Source: an uncultured Clostridia bacterium (GTDB taxonomy: Bacteria > Bacillota > Clostridia > Oscillospirales > Ruminococcaceae). From it: a stretch of 64,000 nt of DNA. The notes beneath the pieces are model-generated. The model ran no database searches. It worked only from the letters and a program-made list of their open reading frames with translations, and had not been told where the DNA came from. The stretch covers positions 2,649-66,648 of the forward strand of contig CALXCO010000008.1 in the NCBI GenBank assembly GCA_944386805.1, read 5' to 3'. Positions 38,662-57,496 of this stretch are shown one piece after another. Position 1 is the stretch's first letter. The number at the start of each line of letters is the position of its first letter. A program made the position numbers and the translations under genes.

Positions 38662-39222
38662 TCACACGGCGTCCGGTTCAATCGGATGCAGTATATCCTC
38701 CATATGGTCGATGATAAAATGCTGGGCATCCTCATTGTATAACACCGCAGTATAACCTCCGTATTTTCCGGGCCGATACTCCGATGATATTCCAAGTTCC
38801 TTACCGGCGTCCGTTGGAAGTTTATGACCATGACCTTTTTCATCGGTTTCTACGAACAGAAATCCTTTCTCAACCAGCCAGCCGGTGATTTTAGTAAGAG
38901 ATATTTTCTGCATCATTTTGGAATCTGCCAGAGCATTGACTGGTTCCATAAATTTCCGTATCATAACCGGTTCAGCTGAATAAATGATACAATTGTACAT
39001 TTCATCAGTCATCTGGAACGGTGCTTTCGAGCCTCGGTTCACCTGGCCGCCGTTGTCAATCACCTGCTGCAGCACACCCGATACGTAAAAAAAACACCGT
39101 ATCAGACGTGCCTGGTTAATCACCGAATCTTCCGGGACTTCCTGACCGCTGATCGGGTCAATTCCCTGCGCCAGCTTGTCAATATAGTCCTTTGCGTGCC
39201 TCATAATGTCCAGTTCGGTCAT
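38662..39222 (-). CDS. Hypothetical protein
   Basis: Start taken at ATG 39222 (MTELDIMRHAKDYIDKL), 8 nt after GGAAAGGTGG. I recognise no motif. G+C is visibly lower than the neighbours. Confidence 0.65.
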   Translation of the reverse strand: MTELDIMRHAKDYIDKLAQGIDPISGQEVPEDSVINQARLIRCFFYVSGVLQQVIDNGGQVNRGSKAPFQMTDEMYNCIIYSAEPVMIRKFMEPVNALADSKMMQKISLTKITGWLVEKGFLFVETDEKGHGHKLPTDAGKELGISSEYRPGKYGGYTAVLYNEDAQHFIIDHMEDILHPIEPDAV

Positions 39223-39269
39223 GGAATCGACCACCTTTCCATTTTGTCAGTCGTTATTTGATGCTGGCT

Positions 39270-39983
39270 TTACCGGTAAATACCGCATTTTCCGTATGTA
39301 TACAGCAGGACATTCTCTGCACCCGGAAACGTCAGGCCGGAAGGCTGTCCGATGATTGAACCGTCCTTGATTCCCTGAGCGCATGCAATCAGGTCAGAAA
39401 TAATCTCCGCTGAAACCGGGCAGGTGTTATGACTGGGATAAACGGTATCAAATTTTCCGCTTTCGGCCATCCCACGCAGTTTCAGCAGGCTTTCCAGATA
39501 CTTGTCCGGGTCGCGATGTCCCCCAAACAGATACACCGGACCGTATGAAACCGTATCTCCCGAAAACAAAATGCCCGCCTGCTCGTCCATCAGCGCAATC
39601 GAACCGGGCGTATGACCCGGACACTCCACGACTTTCAGCCGGATTCCGCCAAGGTCGATACAGTCCCCCTCGCTGATTTCAACAATCTCTGTCCCTTCGG
39701 CATAGCGGTCCTGCGTCAGCAGCGGCCGTTCAGCCGGGTGAATATAAATGCGGGAAAAAGCGTTCAAATTGGCGGTATGATCGCCATCGGTATGGCTCAT
39801 GCAGCAGGCGACCGGCAGGTCGGTTACACTGCGTATCATGCCGGCAAAATCTGCCGGGCTGACGCCTGCGTCCAGGCACAGCGCCGACTCTGTCCCCACA
39901 ATCACGAAACTGCGGACCATTTGCTGGTCAATCGCATAAATCCATTCCCCCAGTTTGACCAGGCTTGCCGTGAATTTTTCCAT
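39270..39983 (-). CDS. MBL-fold metallo-hydrolase
   Basis: 237 aa. SHTDGDH and CPGHTPGS motifs. Confidence 0.88.
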   Translation of the reverse strand: MEKFTASLVKLGEWIYAIDQQMVRSFVIVGTESALCLDAGVSPADFAGMIRSVTDLPVACCMSHTDGDHTANLNAFSRIYIHPAERPLLTQDRYAEGTEIVEISEGDCIDLGGIRLKVVECPGHTPGSIALMDEQAGILFSGDTVSYGPVYLFGGHRDPDKYLESLLKLRGMAESGKFDTVYPSHNTCPVSAEIISDLIACAQGIKDGSIIGQPSGLTFPGAENVLLYTYGKCGIYR

Positions 39984-40011
39984 ACCTTTCAGCTCCTTTC
40001 GTGTATTTCCG

Positions 40012-40518
40012 TTAAATCAGTTTCAGGCCGCGCACCGCTGCCTGCAAACCAGCAAAGTCGTCCTGATTTGGATGTCCGACTGCCCTGTCAAAGTTGTCCA
40101 GCATCTGCTCACGGGCAGGAGATGGTTCCATCGCCTGATACCGCTGACGGACTGCATCCGGCATCTGTCCCTGACAGACAAAACTCCCTTCCATCCGTGC
40201 CGCTCCGCTGAGGTTCTTGCGCACATTGCCCAGAATTTTGGCGTAATATTCGTCCGAACCGCCAAAGCCCGCTGTCCCAAACAGGAAAAACCGCCGGGCA
40301 CCACATTTTTGCAGAAAGTCCGCCATCCCCGCGTCACAGCTGCCCCGGTCGGTCCAGAAGCCTGCAAAAATAATCTCGGCCTGTTTCGCCTTTTCAACCG
40401 CCTCATCGCCCGGCTCTCCATAATATAGGCAGTCCTGTTCCGGCAATAAGGTGTGAATAACCTCCGCAAGCTGACGGGTATTGCCGGTTCTGCTGCTGTA
40501 CACGATGATATATTTCAT
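40012..40518 (-). CDS. Flavodoxin family protein
   Basis: 168 aa. MKYIIVYSSRTGNTRQLAE FMN-binding start. Confidence 0.85.
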   Translation of the reverse strand: MKYIIVYSSRTGNTRQLAEVIHTLLPEQDCLYYGEPGDEAVEKAKQAEIIFAGFWTDRGSCDAGMADFLQKCGARRFFLFGTAGFGGSDEYYAKILGNVRKNLSGAARMEGSFVCQGQMPDAVRQRYQAMEPSPAREQMLDNFDRAVGHPNQDDFAGLQAAVRGLKLI

Positions 40519-40631
40519 CTGCTGCTCCTTTCCGCTATAAAAAATAAGCGCCCATATTTCCCAACCATCAGGCAGTATTGTTGCCTAAAATTTCAGCAAA
40601 TAACCGCCTGATTTTTATTCCATTTGAATTC

Positions 40632-40660
40632 AGTATACTCCCACCTCCCGCCAAAGTCAA
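40632..40660 (-). promoter_or_regulatory. Promoter of the flavodoxin gene
   Basis: TTGACT-N17-TATACT on the minus strand. Predicts a ~115-nt leader with a 10-bp hairpin. Confidence 0.55.
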
Positions 40661-40693
40661 GGCGGATTCGGTAAACATTCCCCGGCTGTCTGT

Positions 40694-40724
40694 AAAAAAA
40701 CAGGAAACCATTTCTGATTTCCTG
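40694..40724 (-). terminator. Terminator after the methyltransferase gene
   Basis: CAGGAAA-loop-TTTCCTG followed by TTTTTTT on the minus strand. Confidence 0.75.
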
Positions 40725-40743
40725 CACACCTAAATGATTCAAT

Positions 40744-41367
40744 TTAGCCGTCATTTTTCAAGGTCAGCAGACCGGCACAGTGTGAGACTGGTTCAAAGCG
40801 CATGTTGGGGAAAGATTTTCTTAACTCGTCAAATACAAAGTAGACCTCATCCTGATCCCATCCATCTCCGGCCTGTTCCCTGCATTTATCCAGTTCGGCA
40901 CGGGTCGCGAACGCAACATCGCCGATATAAATGCAGCCGTCCTCCCTGAGCAGCGGCAATAGTTCGGTCAGAAACCGGACTTTCTGTTCATCGGTCAGGT
41001 GGTGCAGCGAATAGGTCGCGATGATCGAATCGTACCGGTTCTGCTTCAGCTCCTCCACCAGCCCATGCGAAAAATCACCCTGGTACAGGCTGGCCTGCGG
41101 CATTTTTGCCTGTGCGATTTCGATCATTCTGGCGGAAAAATCCTGACCATAGATGCGGCATCCCTGTTCGTACAGTTTTGTCGTCAGTGTGCCGGTGCCG
41201 AATCCGATGTCCAGCACGGTTTTCCCGGTATGGGACAGCACATGATTATAAATCTCATTCAGCAGGTTCCGGTATCCTGCAAAAGGATAGGAACCATCCT
41301 CGTCGGACAGCCCGACACTTTTGTCGTAATCGTCTGCCCATAAATCAAACGCGTGACTATTTAACAT
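40744..41367 (-). CDS. Class I SAM-dependent methyltransferase
   Basis: 207 aa. VLDIGFGTGTL motif I. Confidence 0.88.
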   Translation of the reverse strand: MLNSHAFDLWADDYDKSVGLSDEDGSYPFAGYRNLLNEIYNHVLSHTGKTVLDIGFGTGTLTTKLYEQGCRIYGQDFSARMIEIAQAKMPQASLYQGDFSHGLVEELKQNRYDSIIATYSLHHLTDEQKVRFLTELLPLLREDGCIYIGDVAFATRAELDKCREQAGDGWDQDEVYFVFDELRKSFPNMRFEPVSHCAGLLTLKNDG

Positions 41368-41469
41368 ACATTCTCTCCTGATGTTTTCCGTAACCTAAAT
41401 ATAACCAGAGCCGGTTCCTCTGATGAAATCCACCAGAAAAACCGGCTCCTGCCGTCATCTATAACCTGA

Positions 41470-42714
41470 TTATACCGATGCGGTAATCACACCGGTCAGT
41501 GCAGTCGCGGCAGCAATCGCCGGGCTGCTCAGATAGATATTGACCCCAGAGGTGCCCATCCGGCCGAGGAAGTTGCGGTTGTTGGTCGCAACAACCGTCT
41601 CGCCGTCGGTCAGAATACCGCCTGCACGTCCGCAGCAAAGGCCGCATCCCGGCTGGGTAATAATCGCGCCAGCCTCTGCCAGAATCTCAATATACCCTGC
41701 TTTAATTGCTTCGCGGTAGATGCTCCGGGAAGCCGGGGTGACAATCATCTTGAGACCGGGCGCAATCTTTTTGCCTTTCAAAATCTCGGCTGCAACTGCC
41801 AGATCTTCCAGACGTCCATTGGTGCAGGAACCGAGGAAAACCTGATCGACCTTTGTTCCGGCCTTTTCCGAAACAGGATGGATGTTGTCCACCTGAGAAG
41901 GACATGCCAGTACCGGAACAAAATCCTCTGCATTATAGTGGATGACCCGCTCATAAACCGCGTCTTCATCCGGGCGCACCCATGCGATTTCGTCATACGG
42001 CTGTCCGGTAAATGCGGCGGTCTTCTCGTCGGTCGCGAACAGCGCACATTTTGCGCCGCATTCGATCGACATGTTGGACATCGTCATCCGGGAAGAGATG
42101 CTCATATTGTCAATGCAGCTGCCTGCAAATTCCAGTGCCTTATAGGTCGCGCCGTCGGCGCGCAGGTCGCCGATAATCGTCAGAATGACGTCTTTTGCAT
42201 AGACGCCTTTGGGCAATTTACCGTCAATGACAATCCGAATCGTCTCTGGAACACGGCACCACATCTCACCGGTGCCCAGAATTGCCGCCATCTCGGTATA
42301 ACCGATACCGGACGAGAAGCAGCCGACACAGCCATAAGTGGTGGTATGGGAGTCGGTGCCGAAGACAATCTGACCCGGACGGGCATAGCCCATCTCCGGC
42401 ATCAGCTGGTGACAGATACCGTCGGCACGGTGGAAATGGGTCAGTCCCTGCTCTTTGACAAAGGCGTCGCCAATCTTGAAGTGGCGGACGTCCTCGACGG
42501 CAGAAGTCGGAACCAGATGGTCATAAATCAGGACGACCTTGTCCGGGTCCCAAACTTTGGTGAAGCCCATCTCTTTGAACTTGTCAACAACGAACGGAAT
42601 AAAAATATCGTGAATCATCACCCGGTCAACCTTGACCGTCACGATCTGGCCGGGACGAACGTCCGCAGCGTCGGTTCCCTTCATAATGATCTTTTCAATC
42701 AGTGTATGTCCCAT
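41470..42714 (-). CDS. Aconitase-family dehydratase large subunit (LeuC/HacA-like), copy 1
   Basis: 414 aa. GTDSHTTT, GSCTNGR, PGCGLCCG Fe-S ligand motifs. Confidence 0.9.
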   Translation of the reverse strand: MGHTLIEKIIMKGTDAADVRPGQIVTVKVDRVMIHDIFIPFVVDKFKEMGFTKVWDPDKVVLIYDHLVPTSAVEDVRHFKIGDAFVKEQGLTHFHRADGICHQLMPEMGYARPGQIVFGTDSHTTTYGCVGCFSSGIGYTEMAAILGTGEMWCRVPETIRIVIDGKLPKGVYAKDVILTIIGDLRADGATYKALEFAGSCIDNMSISSRMTMSNMSIECGAKCALFATDEKTAAFTGQPYDEIAWVRPDEDAVYERVIHYNAEDFVPVLACPSQVDNIHPVSEKAGTKVDQVFLGSCTNGRLEDLAVAAEILKGKKIAPGLKMIVTPASRSIYREAIKAGYIEILAEAGAIITQPGCGLCCGRAGGILTDGETVVATNNRNFLGRMGTSGVNIYLSSPAIAAATALTGVITASV

Positions 42715-42727
42715 CGCTTTTTCCTCC

Positions 42728-43216
42728 TCAGATCAGACCGTTGCGCTTCTGCATCGCACGGACCAGGCCGCCTGCCTCCAGAATATCCATCAGGTTCTGC
42801 GGCAATGGGCTGATCGGGAAAGACTCACCGTTATGCACAATCTGATGACCCGGTTCAACCGTGATGGTATCCCCTTCCTGGACATGGTCGTACAGGTCGC
42901 TTTCAATCAGCAGCAGGCCGTTGTTGATCGAGTTGCGGAAGAAGATCCGGGCAAAGCTTTTCGCAATGACACAGGCAACGCCCAGATGACGGATAATCTC
43001 CGGCGCCTGTTCACGGGAAGAACCGCAGCCGAAGTTCTTGCCGGCGACAATGATATCACCCGGCTGAATCTGTCCGGCCAGTTCGGGACGCAAGGGAGAA
43101 AAAGCGTATTTTTTCATATCATCAACCGTTTTGAGTGCCAGATATTCGGTCGGGATAATGATATCGGTGTCGATATCGTCCCCCAGCACCCAGATTTTAC
43201 CGGTAAAAGTGGACAT
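42728..43216 (-). CDS. Aconitase-family dehydratase small subunit (LeuD-like), copy 1
   Basis: 162 aa. GDDIDTDIIIPTEYLAL... and GKNFGCGSSREQA motifs. Confidence 0.9.
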   Translation of the reverse strand: MSTFTGKIWVLGDDIDTDIIIPTEYLALKTVDDMKKYAFSPLRPELAGQIQPGDIIVAGKNFGCGSSREQAPEIIRHLGVACVIAKSFARIFFRNSINNGLLLIESDLYDHVQEGDTITVEPGHQIVHNGESFPISPLPQNLMDILEAGGLVRAMQKRNGLI

Positions 43217-43256
43217 CGTGTTCAGTCTCCTTTATCAAATCAAAATGCAGGCCGGT

Positions 43257-44501
43257 TTACTCGGCGGCAACAATCTTGCCGGCAATCGCCGATGCAGTGA
43301 CTGTCGCGGCGGATGCAAGGTAAACCTTGGAGGTCTTATGTCCGGCACGTCCTTTAAAGTTGCGGGTACCGGTCGAGACAAGGACCTCGTTCTCGCCGAT
43401 GACACCCTGACAGCTGCCCCAGCATACCGAGCAGTTGCAGTTCATCACCATCGCGCCCGATTCCAGCAGCACATCAATAATGCCCTCACGCAGTGCCTGC
43501 AAATAGACTTCATTGGAAGCAGGTGCAACAATAAACCGGACATCGGGATGGACCTTTTTGCCCTTCAGGATTTTAGCGGCAACACGCAGTTCGTCAATCC
43601 GTCCGTTGTTGCAGGAGCCAAGGAACGCCTCGTCGATCTTGACATCGCCCAGTTCCCGCAGCGGAATGACATCATCGACAAAGTCAGGACGTGCTACAAC
43701 CGGTTCGATCTTGTCCAGATCATACTCGTATACCTTGAGGAATTTTGCGTCCGGGTCAGAGACAAACATGTTCTCTGCCTTTCTGCCTCTCGACTCAACA
43801 AATTCCTTTACCTTCTCATCCGGTTCGACAATACCGGTCTTTGCACCGGCTTCGACTGCCAGGTTGCAGAGGACAAAACGGTCATTGACCGACAGGTTGT
43901 GTGCGCCGTCTCCGGCAAATTCCATGCACTTGTAGTTGGCGCCGTTGGCGCCGATATCTCCGATAATCGTCAGAATCAGGTCACGCGGATAGACGCCTTC
44001 CCGCAGTTTGCCGTGCAGGTTAAAGCGCAGTGTCTCCGGGACCATGACCCAGCTGCCGCCGGTGACCATGCCGTACAAAAAGTCGGTGCATCCGACGCCG
44101 GTGCCGAATGCGCCCAGCGCACCATACGAGCAGGTATGGGAATCGGCGCCGAAAATCAGCTGACCGGGTTCGACAAAATCCTCGAACATGATCTGATGGC
44201 AGACGCCTTTGCCCTCATACATCTTGATATTGTTCTCGCGGGCAAATTCCCGCATTTTTTTATGTACCGCTGCCGTCTTGGGGTTTTCGGCAGGGATGTT
44301 GTGGTCGACGATAAAGACCACCTTGCCGGGGTCGGCGATATGGGGGTGTTTGAGTTTGTTCCGGTACATATCGATCGTCAGGTGGGTGGTGCCGTCGTTG
44401 CTCATCAGCCAGTCAAGGTTGACCGAGTGAATCTCGCCCGGCTTTACTTCATCGACTTTCGCGGCACGCGCAATAATTTTTTCCGCAATGGTCATGCCCA
44501 T
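43257..44501 (-). CDS. Aconitase-family dehydratase large subunit (LeuC/HacA-like), copy 2
   Basis: 414 aa. GADSHTCS, GSCNNGR, CNCSVCWG motifs. Clearly diverged from copy 1. Confidence 0.9.
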   Translation of the reverse strand: MGMTIAEKIIARAAKVDEVKPGEIHSVNLDWLMSNDGTTHLTIDMYRNKLKHPHIADPGKVVFIVDHNIPAENPKTAAVHKKMREFARENNIKMYEGKGVCHQIMFEDFVEPGQLIFGADSHTCSYGALGAFGTGVGCTDFLYGMVTGGSWVMVPETLRFNLHGKLREGVYPRDLILTIIGDIGANGANYKCMEFAGDGAHNLSVNDRFVLCNLAVEAGAKTGIVEPDEKVKEFVESRGRKAENMFVSDPDAKFLKVYEYDLDKIEPVVARPDFVDDVIPLRELGDVKIDEAFLGSCNNGRIDELRVAAKILKGKKVHPDVRFIVAPASNEVYLQALREGIIDVLLESGAMVMNCNCSVCWGSCQGVIGENEVLVSTGTRNFKGRAGHKTSKVYLASAATVTASAIAGKIVAAE

Positions 44502-44551
44502 GATTACTTCATCCTTTTTTCTTATTGATATTCTCTTATCCGATCTCTTTG

Positions 44552-45025
44552 TCAGTCGTCCTTATTGAGGAACGCAATCAGCCCGCCGGCGTTCAGAATC
44601 GTCTGCATATACTCCGGCAGTTTGGTGCAGGTAAAGCTGCGGTCACCGACGGTAACGGTACCGTTTCCAAGGTCGACCTCTGCTTCGTCCCCTGCCTGTA
44701 CGTTGTCGGCAAGGTCGGCGCTGACCAGAACCGGCAGGCCGATGTTGATTGCGTTGCGGTAGAAGATGCGGGCAAAGCTGCCGGCAATAATTGCCTTGAC
44801 TCCCAGTGCTTTCAGGACGCTGGGCGCCTGTTCACGGGAAGAGCCGCAGCCGAAGTTCTCTCCGGCGACAATAATATCGCCCGGTTTTACCTGCTGTGCA
44901 AACGTTTCATCCAGCGATTCGAAAGCATGCCCTTTCATCTCATCGATATTCGGCAGCAAAAGATACTGGGAAGCCAGAATCTGGTCGGTATCCACGTCAT
45001 TTTTGAATTTAAAAATCTTGCTCAT
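44552..45025 (-). CDS. Aconitase-family dehydratase small subunit (LeuD-like), copy 2
   Basis: 157 aa. VDTDQILASQYLLL... and GENFGCGSSREQA motifs. Confidence 0.9.
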   Translation of the reverse strand: MSKIFKFKNDVDTDQILASQYLLLPNIDEMKGHAFESLDETFAQQVKPGDIIVAGENFGCGSSREQAPSVLKALGVKAIIAGSFARIFYRNAINIGLPVLVSADLADNVQAGDEAEVDLGNGTVTVGDRSFTCTKLPEYMQTILNAGGLIAFLNKDD

Positions 45026-45104
45026 AACCTGATATCATCCCTTTATCCAACATTTCTGCGTCTGGTCAGAGAAGCTGTGTTCCTGACCGACAACTTTTGT
45101 TTCT

Positions 45105-45133
45105 ATTATAAATGATAAACCCATTTTTGTAAA
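45105..45133 (-). promoter_or_regulatory. Promoter of the aconitase-family operon
   Basis: TTTACA-N17-TATAAT on the minus strand, about 75 nt upstream of ATG 45025. Confidence 0.6.
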
Positions 45134-45151
45134 GACCCGGTGTCCGGGTCT
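45133..45151 (-). terminator. Terminator-like hairpin at the end of the hairpin-dense block
   Basis: AGACCCGG-aca-CCGGGTCT followed by TTTACAAAAAT on the minus strand. There is no U-tail on the plus strand. Confidence 0.5.
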
Positions 45152-45173
45152 GCACAGTGCCTGCACAGTGCCT
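45152..45173. repeat. Tandem 11-nt duplication GCACAGTGCCT x2
   Basis: Read directly. Each unit contains the small palindrome GCAC.GTGC. Confidence 0.9.
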
Positions 45174-45644
45174 GTGCTCCCTGTTTGCCGATGTGATACC
45201 ACGCTCTGCATGCTCAGCAAACGAACGTCGCTTCACCGCTCGATTTTATATTGCACACGCTTCCCATCTGTTCACGCGAGCGCAGAGCGAGTCCCAAAGT
45301 TACGCACAATGTGGGCACGGTCATATCAAAAAAGTTCGGTCAAGCCTTTCAAGGCTTGCAGGTCCAGGACAGAGTACGGTTTGCTTTGCAAACCACACAG
45401 TTTCCAGAGGAAACTGTCCGGTTCCAACAGGGAACCGTGGTCGCACCTCCGCAGAAGGCGAAATTCCTTAAACGGAGTGCGCCCGGCACAGGGTGAATTT
45501 CCCGAACTGTCCGGTGGACAGTTCGGGAAAGAGGGGCATGCCCTGCAAGAGAGGGCTGCCCCTGACAATCTTCCGACAATTACCATCTCCCCCTTGCATT
45601 CCCTGCTTGCCAGGATTTGAACCACCGCAGATTTTAAAATCGAA

Positions 45645-46970
45645 TTATCGCGGCAGAATACCAAAGGTGTACCCTTTCTGGCGGGCTGTGTCGATAAAAT
45701 CGCCCAGAATTGCCGCGTTGGTCTTGGAAACGGCGTGCAGCAGGTAGATTGCGCCCGGATGCAGGGCAGAAGTCGTCTTTTGCAATGCAGTCGAGGTACT
45801 CATCTGTGCCGACGGGTCCCAGTCCTTATACGCAAAACTCCACAGCACCGTCTGGTACCCCATTCCCTGCGCCTGAGCAAGCACCTGCTCGGAAAATACA
45901 CCTTCCGGCGGACGCATCAGGTACATCGAATACCCGAACTTTTCCTCCACTGCGTCATGCAGGTCGCCGATCTCCTCGGCACGGCGGCTGATGCTGCACT
46001 GGGGCAGGTTGGGGTGCTTGACGGTATGGTTGCCAACGGTATGTCCCTCATTGATCATCCGGCCAACCAGATCGGGCTGGCTGTTCAGGTAATCGCCGGT
46101 GATAAAGAAGGTCGCCTGCACCCCTTTGGCTTTCAGAGTGTCGAGAATCGATGCGGTATAGCCGTTTTCATACCCTTCATCGAAGGTCAGGTAGATCACC
46201 TTTTCATTCGGTCCGACAAACTGTCCGCCGAGTGCGCCGTATTTTTCCTGATACGAAACGGCACTGATCGGTCGGTTATAGGAATCGACCTGAGTCCCCT
46301 GTCCCCAGCCGAGCGCCTTATTGGAAAGGGTGCTCAGGTCTTTGGAGGAAGCGACCGCACCGGAAGCGTCCAGTGTGTACACCGTCGAACCTTCGGTCAT
46401 CGCGCCGGTCTTCATTGCACCGGACGGCGTCAGATAATACCGCTTGCCGTTTACGTTCAGCCAGCCGGTCTGCATCGCGCCGCTTTCAGCAAAATAATAC
46501 CATTTTCCGCCGTTATAGACCCATCCGGTCTTCATTGCACCGCCGCCGAACAGATACCATTTCCCGCCGATCTTCTGCCAACCGTCCACCATGACGCCGT
46601 CGGCGTCCAGATAGTACCATTTTCCATCCACTTCCCGCCAGCCGTTCTGACGGATGCCGCTCTCGGAAAGCAAATACCATTTTCCGTCCAGCTGCTGCCA
46701 TCCGTTCAGCGGAATGCCGTTCCCGTCCAGCAGGATATACTGTCCATCCCGCTGTTCCCAGTGAGGAGCCGGCATCATCTGCCCATCCTCTGCCGAACTG
46801 GTGTTTTCATCCGGTTGCTGAGAAGAAGTTTGGTTTTCTTCCTCCGTCTGGAATGCCGGCTGTCCGATCACAACCGGGTTTGCAGGATCAGTTCCCGTCT
46901 CCGCAGCTGCTGCCGGAAACGGCAGCGCCAGTAAAAGTGCAGCGAAAAGTGCTGTCAGTCTTCGTTTCAT
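45645..46970 (-). CDS. Secreted polysaccharide deacetylase (NodB domain) with cell-wall-binding repeats
   Basis: 441 aa. Signal peptide, about six GW..DGKWYY-type repeats, then YLTFDEGYENG...GHTVGNHT NodB motifs. Confidence 0.9.
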   Translation of the reverse strand: MKRRLTALFAALLLALPFPAAAAETGTDPANPVVIGQPAFQTEEENQTSSQQPDENTSSAEDGQMMPAPHWEQRDGQYILLDGNGIPLNGWQQLDGKWYLLSESGIRQNGWREVDGKWYYLDADGVMVDGWQKIGGKWYLFGGGAMKTGWVYNGGKWYYFAESGAMQTGWLNVNGKRYYLTPSGAMKTGAMTEGSTVYTLDASGAVASSKDLSTLSNKALGWGQGTQVDSYNRPISAVSYQEKYGALGGQFVGPNEKVIYLTFDEGYENGYTASILDTLKAKGVQATFFITGDYLNSQPDLVGRMINEGHTVGNHTVKHPNLPQCSISRRAEEIGDLHDAVEEKFGYSMYLMRPPEGVFSEQVLAQAQGMGYQTVLWSFAYKDWDPSAQMSTSTALQKTTSALHPGAIYLLHAVSKTNAAILGDFIDTARQKGYTFGILPR

Positions 46971-47065
46971 ATCGTAAACCTCCCATCCAACGCGTCCGGG
47001 CTGCTAAGCAGTCCCGGACACTCAAGGTTTATTGGCCCATTCTTTCAGGGTTTCTCCCTGTCCTT

Positions 47066-47094
47066 ATTGTACCAATATTCACAGAAAAAGGCAA
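47066..47094 (-). promoter_or_regulatory. Promoter of the deacetylase gene
   Basis: TTGCCT-N17-TACAAT with an extended -10 TG. The leader carries hairpins at 47046-47060 and 46994-47019. Confidence 0.55.
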
Positions 47095-47259
47095 GGAACA
47101 GCCGGTTAATTTTGCACAGCATCTGCTGGATTCCTGTGCAAAAAGCAAAGAATAATGCCGTTTCAACGAAAAAAATTTTCCAAATATTCACATTTTTTCT
47201 GCAAAATCCCTTGACCTTGAGTCCACTCCATGTACTACAATAGATCATAGAAAGGAAAG

Positions 47260-57460: not shown

Positions 57461-57496
57461 AAACGCTTCATGTTTTCACATGAAGCGTTTTTTGTT
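57461..57496 (+). terminator. Terminator after tRNA-Thr
   Basis: AAACGCTTCATG-loop-CATGAAGCGTTT plus TTTTG. Confidence 0.85.

Follow-up and report, generated by a model that had tools for sequence, protein, structure and literature searches.

A spacer between a deacetylase gene and an aconitase-family operon

The window, by which we mean the whole 64-kb stretch of DNA that was analysed, harbours two minus-strand genes that are separated by a spacer of 619 nt (45026-45644). The upstream gene specifies a polysaccharide deacetylase, while the LeuD-like gene on the other side is the first of an operon comprising two aconitase-family small/large subunit pairs. An earlier sequence-only reading had singled out this spacer as the largest non-coding gap, and the other gaps of the window indeed measure at most about 474 nt, as gauged from a rough greedy ORF map that took in spurious ORFs. 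The features of the locus are given below in the direction of transcription of the two genes; L024, L083 and L084 are loci of a second lineage that is described further on.

45645..46970, minus strand: polysaccharide deacetylase with choline-binding repeats; upstream gene, with the block beginning directly past its stop codon
45256..45644, no strand assigned: hairpin-dense block (insert of allele A), recognized by strain alignment, identity with L024, hairpin enrichment and the lack of an Rfam match
45438..45644, no strand assigned: stop-proximal conserved arm of the block, with hairpins 45443-45480, 45498-45530 and 45532-45563
45498..45530, no strand assigned: perfect 15-bp hairpin with a 3-nt loop, the longest perfect stem in the window
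45376..45437, no strand assigned: variable cassette made up of three adjoining perfect hairpins (45419-45437, 45397-45417, 45378-45394), defined by alignment with L083 and L084
45364..45374, no strand assigned: half of the palindrome CCAGGAC-AGA-GTCCTGG, intact in L083 and split in the window
45341..45358, no strand assigned: hairpin CAAGCCTT-TC-AAGGCTTG, 7 bp with a 4-nt loop, kept in every copy of the block
45256..45340, no strand assigned: promoter-proximal conserved arm with few hairpins, 100% identical in the window, L024 and L084
45150..45243, no strand assigned: single copy of a 93-nt tandem-repeat unit outside the block, present in 1 to 6 copies in relatives
45133..45151, minus strand: 8-bp hairpin directly next to the -35 box, with a weak T-rich tail (TTTACAAAAAT) and not called by the terminator scan
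45105..45133, minus strand: promoter-like site TTTACA-17-TATAAT of the aconitase-family operon (11/12 matches, promoter scan)
44552..45025, minus strand: aconitase-family small subunit (LeuD-like), downstream gene and first of its operon

The hairpins that the sequence-only reading had listed are all present in the sequence, and so are the doublet of the tandem 11-mer CTGCACAGTGC (45150-45171, inside the 93-nt unit) and the two occurrences of AACTGTCCGGT (at 45412 and 45505). The hairpin positions stood, while two sizes had to be corrected, as the stem at 45397-45417 measures 9 bp rather than 8 and the hairpin at 45341-45358 has 7 bp and a 4-nt loop. All strong stems are perfect Watson-Crick palindromes with loops of mostly 3 nt, those at 45378-45394 and 45419-45437 being 7 bp long; the hairpin at 45532-45563 is bulged (11 bp) and that at 45443-45480 is nested and bulged. 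When perfect hairpins with a stem of at least 7 bp and a loop of 3-8 nt were counted in segments of 389 nt, the block was found to hold 5 distinct ones, as compared to a mean of 0.16 and a maximum of 3 in 1000 dinucleotide shuffles, and no other 389-nt segment of the 64 kb exceeds 3. Folding against shuffled controls, a check that had been suggested, gave z-scores of -4.9 (minus strand) and -5.6 (plus strand), a signal so alike on both strands that neither is favoured.

The statement that the downstream operon has its own promoter after the block was confirmed by a minus-strand TTTACA-17-TATAAT site (45133-45105), which is kept in all alleles of the spacer as well as in a more distant lineage (L073, see below); as the block is positioned upstream of this promoter-like site, it is not a leader of the aconitase-family operon. 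The hairpin at 45133-45151 is common to block-carrying and block-free alleles of the species and to the L024 lineage, and possibly acts as a terminator for upstream transcription. Within the block itself the promoter scan detected no sigma-70-like promoter-like site on either strand, and the terminator scan detected no terminator-like site in 44800-45900, hence none in the block, on either strand; a canonical terminator with a T-tract was found elsewhere in the window, at 57461-57490. The view that the block comprises one or two separate transcription units finds no support in these scans, and the T6 run that had been noted downstream of the 45341-45358 hairpin on the minus strand is 7 nt removed from the stem.

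The block also resisted assignment to any known RNA family. Rfam cmscan of the whole window at gathering thresholds returned two tRNAs only, and a permissive scan of 44900-45800 gave PYLIS_2 as its best match (E=0.21, 17.9 bits), which is noise, and no T-box or riboswitch match at E-values up to 10. This agrees with the earlier failure to place the block in RNase P, tmRNA, 6S, SRP or the T-box class, and the cmscan that had been proposed as a check yielded no family, OLE, ROOL, GOLLD, raiA, HEARO and riboswitches included. The idea of a CsrA sponge did not gain ground, the GGA that follows three loops being the one feature that speaks for it. The concatenated six-frame translation of the block had zero matches among 5.8 billion predicted proteins, so that a coding sequence and a pseudogene were both rejected and the earlier description of the block as non-coding was upheld; in agreement with this, no gene is called inside the block in any block-carrying contig.

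Alleles of the spacer within the species and in relatives

Ten contigs encoding a 100% identical LeuD-like protein were compared with the window, and their gaps were found to measure 285, about 375, 564 or 619 nt. Alignment established that, besides the window, 3 of the ten (L002, L003 and L005) carry the block; these four sequences represent allele A, in which the stop codon is followed by the block and then by one 93-nt unit. The block-free alleles carry 66 different nucleotides past the stop codon and then 1, 2 or 4 tandem 93-nt units (in L004, an array of period 93 and 4.3 copies), and they retain the same promoter and a leader of approximately 80 nt. The block is optional within the species: L008 is devoid of it, yet its entire deacetylase gene is free of SNPs relative to the window and its opposite flank shows few, and of six contigs encoding an identical 441-aa deacetylase protein two are block-free, as against four with the block. 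Within one species, the same pair of orthologous flanking genes therefore encloses non-homologous alternatives, as is characteristic of switched intergenic regions. The first ~55 nt after the stop codon have diverged by ~35% between block and block-free alleles, which indicates a replacement rather than a clean insertion, and no empty-site allele was found. A lineage with 96% LeuD identity lacks the block and carries only a 94-nt unit, in 1, 2, 3 or 6 copies. As a minor point, the sequence GCGTGGTA(T/C)CACA of the tandem unit resembles the T-box motif.

A genome scan covering one genome for each of 185,579 species, using a 23-nt pattern derived from the 15-bp hairpin with 20 specified bases, identified just one locus with the whole block, namely L024, on a contig of Candidatus Faecivivens stercorigallinarum. 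This locus is syntenic with positions 39046-47103 of the window at 82% overall identity, and its block lies at the same site and is 98% (98.2%) identical, as compared to 80-90% for the flanking genes. In steps of 200 nt the flanks are 55-94% identical to L024 and the stretch 45246-45645 is 97% identical. Just 7 differences were counted in the 389-nt block, and still only 7 across 45256-45659, while directly left of 45256 the identity collapses, the adjoining 20-nt junction differing at about 10 positions; in both species the limits of the 98%-identical tract thus very nearly coincide with those of the block. Two further loci, L083 and L084, were recovered by look-ups from the deacetylase side, with the LeuD-side contigs breaking in the repeat, and they belong to the L024 lineage, as judged from the substitutions specific to it that their stop-proximal arms share. 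A further, AT-rich allele of the spacer is seen on contigs of the L024 species. Exact-pattern scans of the sequence collections, by which diverged homologues would be missed, revealed only these two lineages with the block.

The diversity of the block is far below that of its flanks, both within the species, where L005 differs from the window at 2 sites of the 389-nt block as compared to some 2-5% in 250-nt segments of the deacetylase gene, and between the two species. This low diversity implies that the block is young relative to its flanks, since constraint on more than 95% of its positions would be implausible when whole hairpins are dispensable.

In more distant relatives the same gap has other contents. 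A lineage with 83% LeuD identity carries a T-box leader (RF00230, 96.7 bits in L072), another (L085-L089) has a promoter and the T-box motif AATGGTACCGCGG, and a third (L073) combines the promoter and short leader of the window with unrelated hairpins upstream. The occurrence of unrelated contents in one and the same gap across lineages marks the spacer as a hot spot of turnover. Alignment of the spacer with the T-box leaders of relatives revealed no similarity, and a degenerate T-box was consequently rejected.

Hairpins as modules

The block is a mosaic of perfect palindromes that have been singly gained, lost or remodelled. The three central hairpins (window 45437-45378) are missing from L083, where an intact CCAGGAC-TCT-GTCCTGG takes their place; read in this manner, the same palindrome is interrupted in the window by two insertions, a hairpin of 18 nt and a double hairpin of 42 nt. 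At the cassette L084 has a different hairpin, GGTTCGC-TAC-GCGAACC, with two homologues, namely the post-stop hairpin of the block-free allele and the hairpin at window 45378-45394; from the latter it differs by a C-G to T-A double change that leaves the stem perfect. Both L083 and L084 differ from the window by a clustered multi-base change, CGGAGGTGCG to CGGAAGGCG, which destroys the outer stem of 45443-45480 and creates GCCTTC-TGCG-GAAGGC. Helices accordingly differ among homologues, with three hairpins gone in L083 and replaced in L084 and with one outer stem remodelled. The conversion of one perfect inverted repeat into another by clustered changes is a signature of template switching (PMC8794818, PMC7202029), a process that can yield perfect hairpins and one-step compensatory changes (PMC8794818). 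One clear case of this signature was observed, GCCTTC-TGCG-GAAGGC versus CGCAC...GTGCG, and template switching may be the mechanism behind the CGGAGGTGCG to CGGAAGGCG change, whichever direction this event took.

The modules were also sought elsewhere. Self-BLAST detected no second copy of the block or of any of its units within the 64-kb window, and the 15-bp hairpin is single-copy in the representative genome of Ca. F. stercorigallinarum. In addition to L024 the genome scan returned 47 other loci, mostly from a handful of Oscillospiraceae MAGs and approximately 28 of them from a single MAG; most contain a dispersed repeat of ~305 nt, the central hairpin of which equals window 45503-45525 at 22 of 23 nt, and the remaining matches were attributed to chance. 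An nhmmer profile of the ~305-nt repeat matched the window at the 23-nt hairpin only, so that the block is not a copy of this element and a reading as such was rejected; Rfam searches of the repeat and of the relatives' loci returned nothing relating to the block. The stems of the other block hairpins were absent from 431 kb of other Oscillospiraceae loci, and as 8 of the 9 hairpins have no known relatives the analogy with the dispersed repeat comes down to a single hairpin. By sequence comparison, then, one module of the block appears to have dispersed relatives, and the block as a whole appears to be single-copy. Scans of JGI metagenomes with a hairpin 22-mer and an arm 20-mer gave zero matches and two chance matches, and none of seven IMG/VR scans with block motifs produced a match containing the block, the 15-bp-hairpin pattern retrieving three stretches, two with the dispersed repeat and one in a Gemmiger-like context. 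No match was obtained by blastn against phage and plasmid collections.

The substitution pattern was examined for signs of a conserved fold. RNAalifold predicted 129 pairs for seven block sequences with a covariation term of +4.5, which is unfavourable, the divergence among these sequences being low; a double change was present in 1 of the 129 pairs and a G-U change in 1. Of the seven between-species differences three fall in predicted pairs of the single-sequence minimum-energy fold, without enrichment of unpaired positions, and none falls in the strong local hairpin stems, for which the chance was estimated at roughly 0.04-0.06, making it only marginally unusual. An in-stem variant at 45420 in L002 retains pairing, as G-U, only if the RNA is made from the minus strand. 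The proposal of one large structured RNA fared poorly against these observations, as a compensatory change is seen, at this low divergence, in only 1 of 129 predicted pairs, some strains of the species lack the block although their flanks are identical, and three hairpins are deleted or replaced in close relatives. The substitution-free strong stems, the 45420 variant and the C-G to T-A change would all fit selection on hairpins, and template switching yields the same.

Origin of the block and its relation to known systems

We give about even chances to the reading that the block represents an alternative allele, made up of stacked palindromes and passed on by horizontal exchange, of a hypervariable intergenic region, and such a swappable palindrome cluster is more likely than a new large structured RNA. 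The allele may have spread horizontally, either through recombination within the conserved flanking sequence or through a site-specific route, while its hairpins would arise and stay perfect by processes acting at the DNA level, such as template switching at quasi-palindromes, insertions and deletions at hairpin bases, and capture of a hairpin from the dispersed repeat. Any function would then be generic and dispensable, and would amount at most to a stem-loop tail on the deacetylase mRNA; stem-loops in such a 3' tail could hinder 3'-exonucleases and reduce the read-through that reaches the promoter of the operon, with the 45151-45133 hairpin perhaps serving as the final stop for the deacetylase transcript. 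The sharp edges of the tract count against this reading, as they are not predicted by plain homologous recombination.

The ending of the 98% tract at the block edges in both species keeps two other explanations alive, that of an RNA gene and that of a mobile element. According to the former, which we consider improbable, the block is an accessory non-coding RNA gene of an undescribed class that has two conserved arms and a variable hairpin region, occurs in some strains only and is held nearly invariant by selection. The 98.2% identity between species whose flanking genes are 80-90% identical, the strong predicted folding (z near -5), the strong local stems free of between-species substitutions, the one minus-strand G-U-compatible variant and the one compensatory pair would all suit such a gene, which in view of the empty Rfam search would be new. 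It would, however, be dispensable in same-species strains with identical flanks, would lack promoter-like and terminator-like sites on both strands and would have had three hairpins deleted or replaced in the sister lineage; moreover, for there to be 7 differences in 389 positions, over 95% of the sequence would have to be under constraint, including loops and linkers. Of the 7 substitutions 3 lie in pairs of the minimum-energy fold, with no enrichment at unpaired positions, and the exact-pattern scans of the 185,579 genomes, JGI and IMG/VR brought to light two carrier lineages only. The alternative of a small non-autonomous mobile element or its remnant, site-specific at this spacer and recently moved between strains and species, is unlikely. 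A near-identical, sharp-edged tract in two species, its presence or absence on identical haplotypes, the location in a rearrangement hot spot and the core hairpin shared with the MITE-like ~305-nt dispersed repeat of related genomes are what such an element would be expected to leave, but the block is single-copy in the 64-kb window, occurs as a whole at one locus among 185,579 species-representative genomes, matches the profile of the dispersed family at the 23-nt hairpin only and is flanked by no convincing terminal inverted repeats or target-site duplication, nor is there an empty-site allele. The two may be joined in a broader reading, likewise unlikely, by which the block would be a self-contained non-coding element that spreads by horizontal transfer, be it an accessory RNA gene or a selfish element with hairpins, with two invariant arms and a variable cassette, confined to one spacer in Faecivivens-like Oscillospiraceae and kept at 98% identity by selection or by very recent site-specific transfer.

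Two further functions, that of a leader for the operon and that of a coding sequence, were both rejected on account of the downstream promoter and the absence of any protein match, respectively. A cis-regulatory leader (riboswitch or attenuator) of the aconitase-family operon would suit the shared orientation of block and operon and would have a parallel in the T-box leader that relatives carry in the same gap (L072, and the motif in L085-L089); it is nevertheless very improbable, as the block is followed by a strong, conserved promoter-like site, block-free alleles keep this promoter and their ~80-nt leader, and the block is unlike the T-box leaders of relatives and matches no T-box or riboswitch at E up to 10. 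That the block encodes one or more small proteins, for which ORFs of 41-43 aa on the minus strand and of 150 aa on the plus strand might be invoked, is hardly credible in light of the empty six-frame search and of the lack of called genes in block-carrying contigs; in the 43-aa ORF the only purine-rich stretch directly abuts the ATG, and the substitutions comprise 2 synonymous and 2 non-synonymous ones.

The block is a new example of switched intergenic regions, of REP/BIME-like mosaics and, putatively, of template-switch hairpins, and not a new RNA class. The switching of intergenic regions between conserved genes is a described phenomenon (Piggy, PMC5890482), and the present locus resembles such regions (PMC5890482) in having the same flanking genes with identical proteins and non-aligning alternatives between them that are independent of flanking SNPs. 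It is unlike them in that one allele is common to a second species at 98% identity, consists almost entirely of perfect palindromes and leaves the downstream promoter unswapped. The REP/BIME clusters of enterobacteria combine repetitive extragenic palindromes into mosaics that lie past the 3' ends of genes and stabilise the upstream mRNA. The block likewise is an intergenic cluster of palindromes stacked past the stop codon, varies in unit number between strains and includes in 45498-45530 a member of a dispersed family, whereas its other hairpins are unique and share no common consensus, the 64 kb contain no multi-copy family, and a REP-associated (RAYT) transposase is not known from it. Perfect stems, very short loops, the CGGAGGTGCG to CGGAAGGCG change and the one-step compensatory change are features that it has in common with template-switch hairpins (PMC8794818) and quasi-palindrome mutagenesis (PMC7202029), from which the 18-nt and 42-nt hairpin insertions depart in having no visible template nearby.

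With OLE, ROOL, GOLLD and raiA the block shares a length of several hundred nucleotides, a non-coding nature, strong folding and a patchy distribution, but it matches no covariance model, is composed of simple perfect local hairpins instead of ornate multi-junction folds, and has an architecture that varies even within a species-level lineage. Its size, hairpin content, intergenic site and presence or absence among strains are similarly reminiscent of MITEs and of BOX/RUP/Correia-type repeats, although it is single-copy, lacks terminal inverted repeats and a target-site duplication, and came about by replacement. Hairpin density and folding z-scores alone would have misclassified the region as a structured RNA, and the failure of its candidacy for a new class of large RNA saves follow-up effort. 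Should the minority reading prove true, the block would represent a new accessory non-coding element in gut Oscillospiraceae; its sharply bounded 98% identity is the notable observation in this respect. As a swappable palindrome cluster, the reading that we favour, it would provide a natural example of spacer turnover in which alleles are exchanged between strains and species and in which perfect hairpins are added, removed and rewritten as units, an example that bears on the origin of terminators and RNA hairpins.

Different leaders upstream of the aconitase-family operon

The gap between the polysaccharide deacetylase gene and the LeuD-like gene carries a T-box leader in more distant relatives of the window lineage:

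L072:2139-2402, T-box leader in the deacetylase-LeuD gap
L085:3023-3439, T-box leader in the deacetylase-LeuD gap

The leader of L072 matched RF00230 at 96.7 bits, the gaps of L085-L087 contain the AATGGTACCGCGG motif together with a TTGACA-17-TATAAT promoter, and two further contigs (L088 and L089) are truncated. In the window lineage the T-box leader is lost, and another promoter with a leader of ~80 nt is used instead. The operon downstream of this gap (window about 41550-45025) encodes two consecutive pairs of aconitase-family small and large subunits, LeuD-like plus LeuC-like in each case, and this succession points to a single promoter that serves two distinct isomerases. On the other side of the gap, the deacetylase gene of the same-species contig L010 (L010:1411-2715) exhibits patches of very high SNP density, at 34 differences per 250 nt in one case and 94 in another, and its 434-aa product has no recorded Pfam match, which together suggest that the choline-binding repeat region has undergone mosaic recombination.

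Variable sequence upstream of the promoter

The operon promoter is adjoined on its upstream side by a tandem unit of 93-94 nt, the copy number of which differs between contigs:

window 45150-45243, 93-94-nt tandem repeat
L004:2464-2866, the same repeat in a same-species contig
L063:1795-2383, the same repeat in the lineage with 96% LeuD identity

A single copy is present in the window, as compared to 1, 2 or 4 in same-species contigs and 1, 2, 3 or 6 in the 96% lineage, and the repeat is a frequent breakpoint of short-read contigs. Within the unit, GCGTGGTA(T/C)CACA bears a loose likeness to a T-box motif, as judged by sequence.

In the Candidatus Faecivivens stercorigallinarum lineage (L079:1-85 and L080:1-40), instead of the tandem unit or the hairpin-dense block, an additional AT-rich sequence lies upstream of CAATTGGCAAAC; both contigs stop there, and these ends may represent the end of an inserted element. 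A lineage with 83% LeuD identity (L073:2022-2500) has the gap promoter and leader in common with the window (CTTTACAAA...TTGTCGGTCAGGA), while upstream of these lie unrelated hairpins, one being followed by a T-run (GCCAGCC-GTACGGCAT-GGCTGGC plus ATTTT), and a called 41-aa ORF.

A dispersed repeat in Oscillospiraceae

A second repeat, of which only the central hairpin matches the block, is dispersed in several Oscillospiraceae MAGs, a single MAG holding about 28 loci:

L039:3575-3885 (JALERU010000077.1) and about 45 other loci among L011-L060, intergenic repeat of ~305 nt

Its appearance is that of an undescribed repeat, either MITE-like or structured, with subterminal inverted repeats (TCGCCCTCATCCG / CTGATGAGGGGGCGA), the central hairpin CGAACTGTCC-GGG-GGACAGTTCG, a fold z-score of -3.2 and no Rfam match. 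Its neighbours are ordinary genes, and one IMG/VR contig carries it in two stretches.
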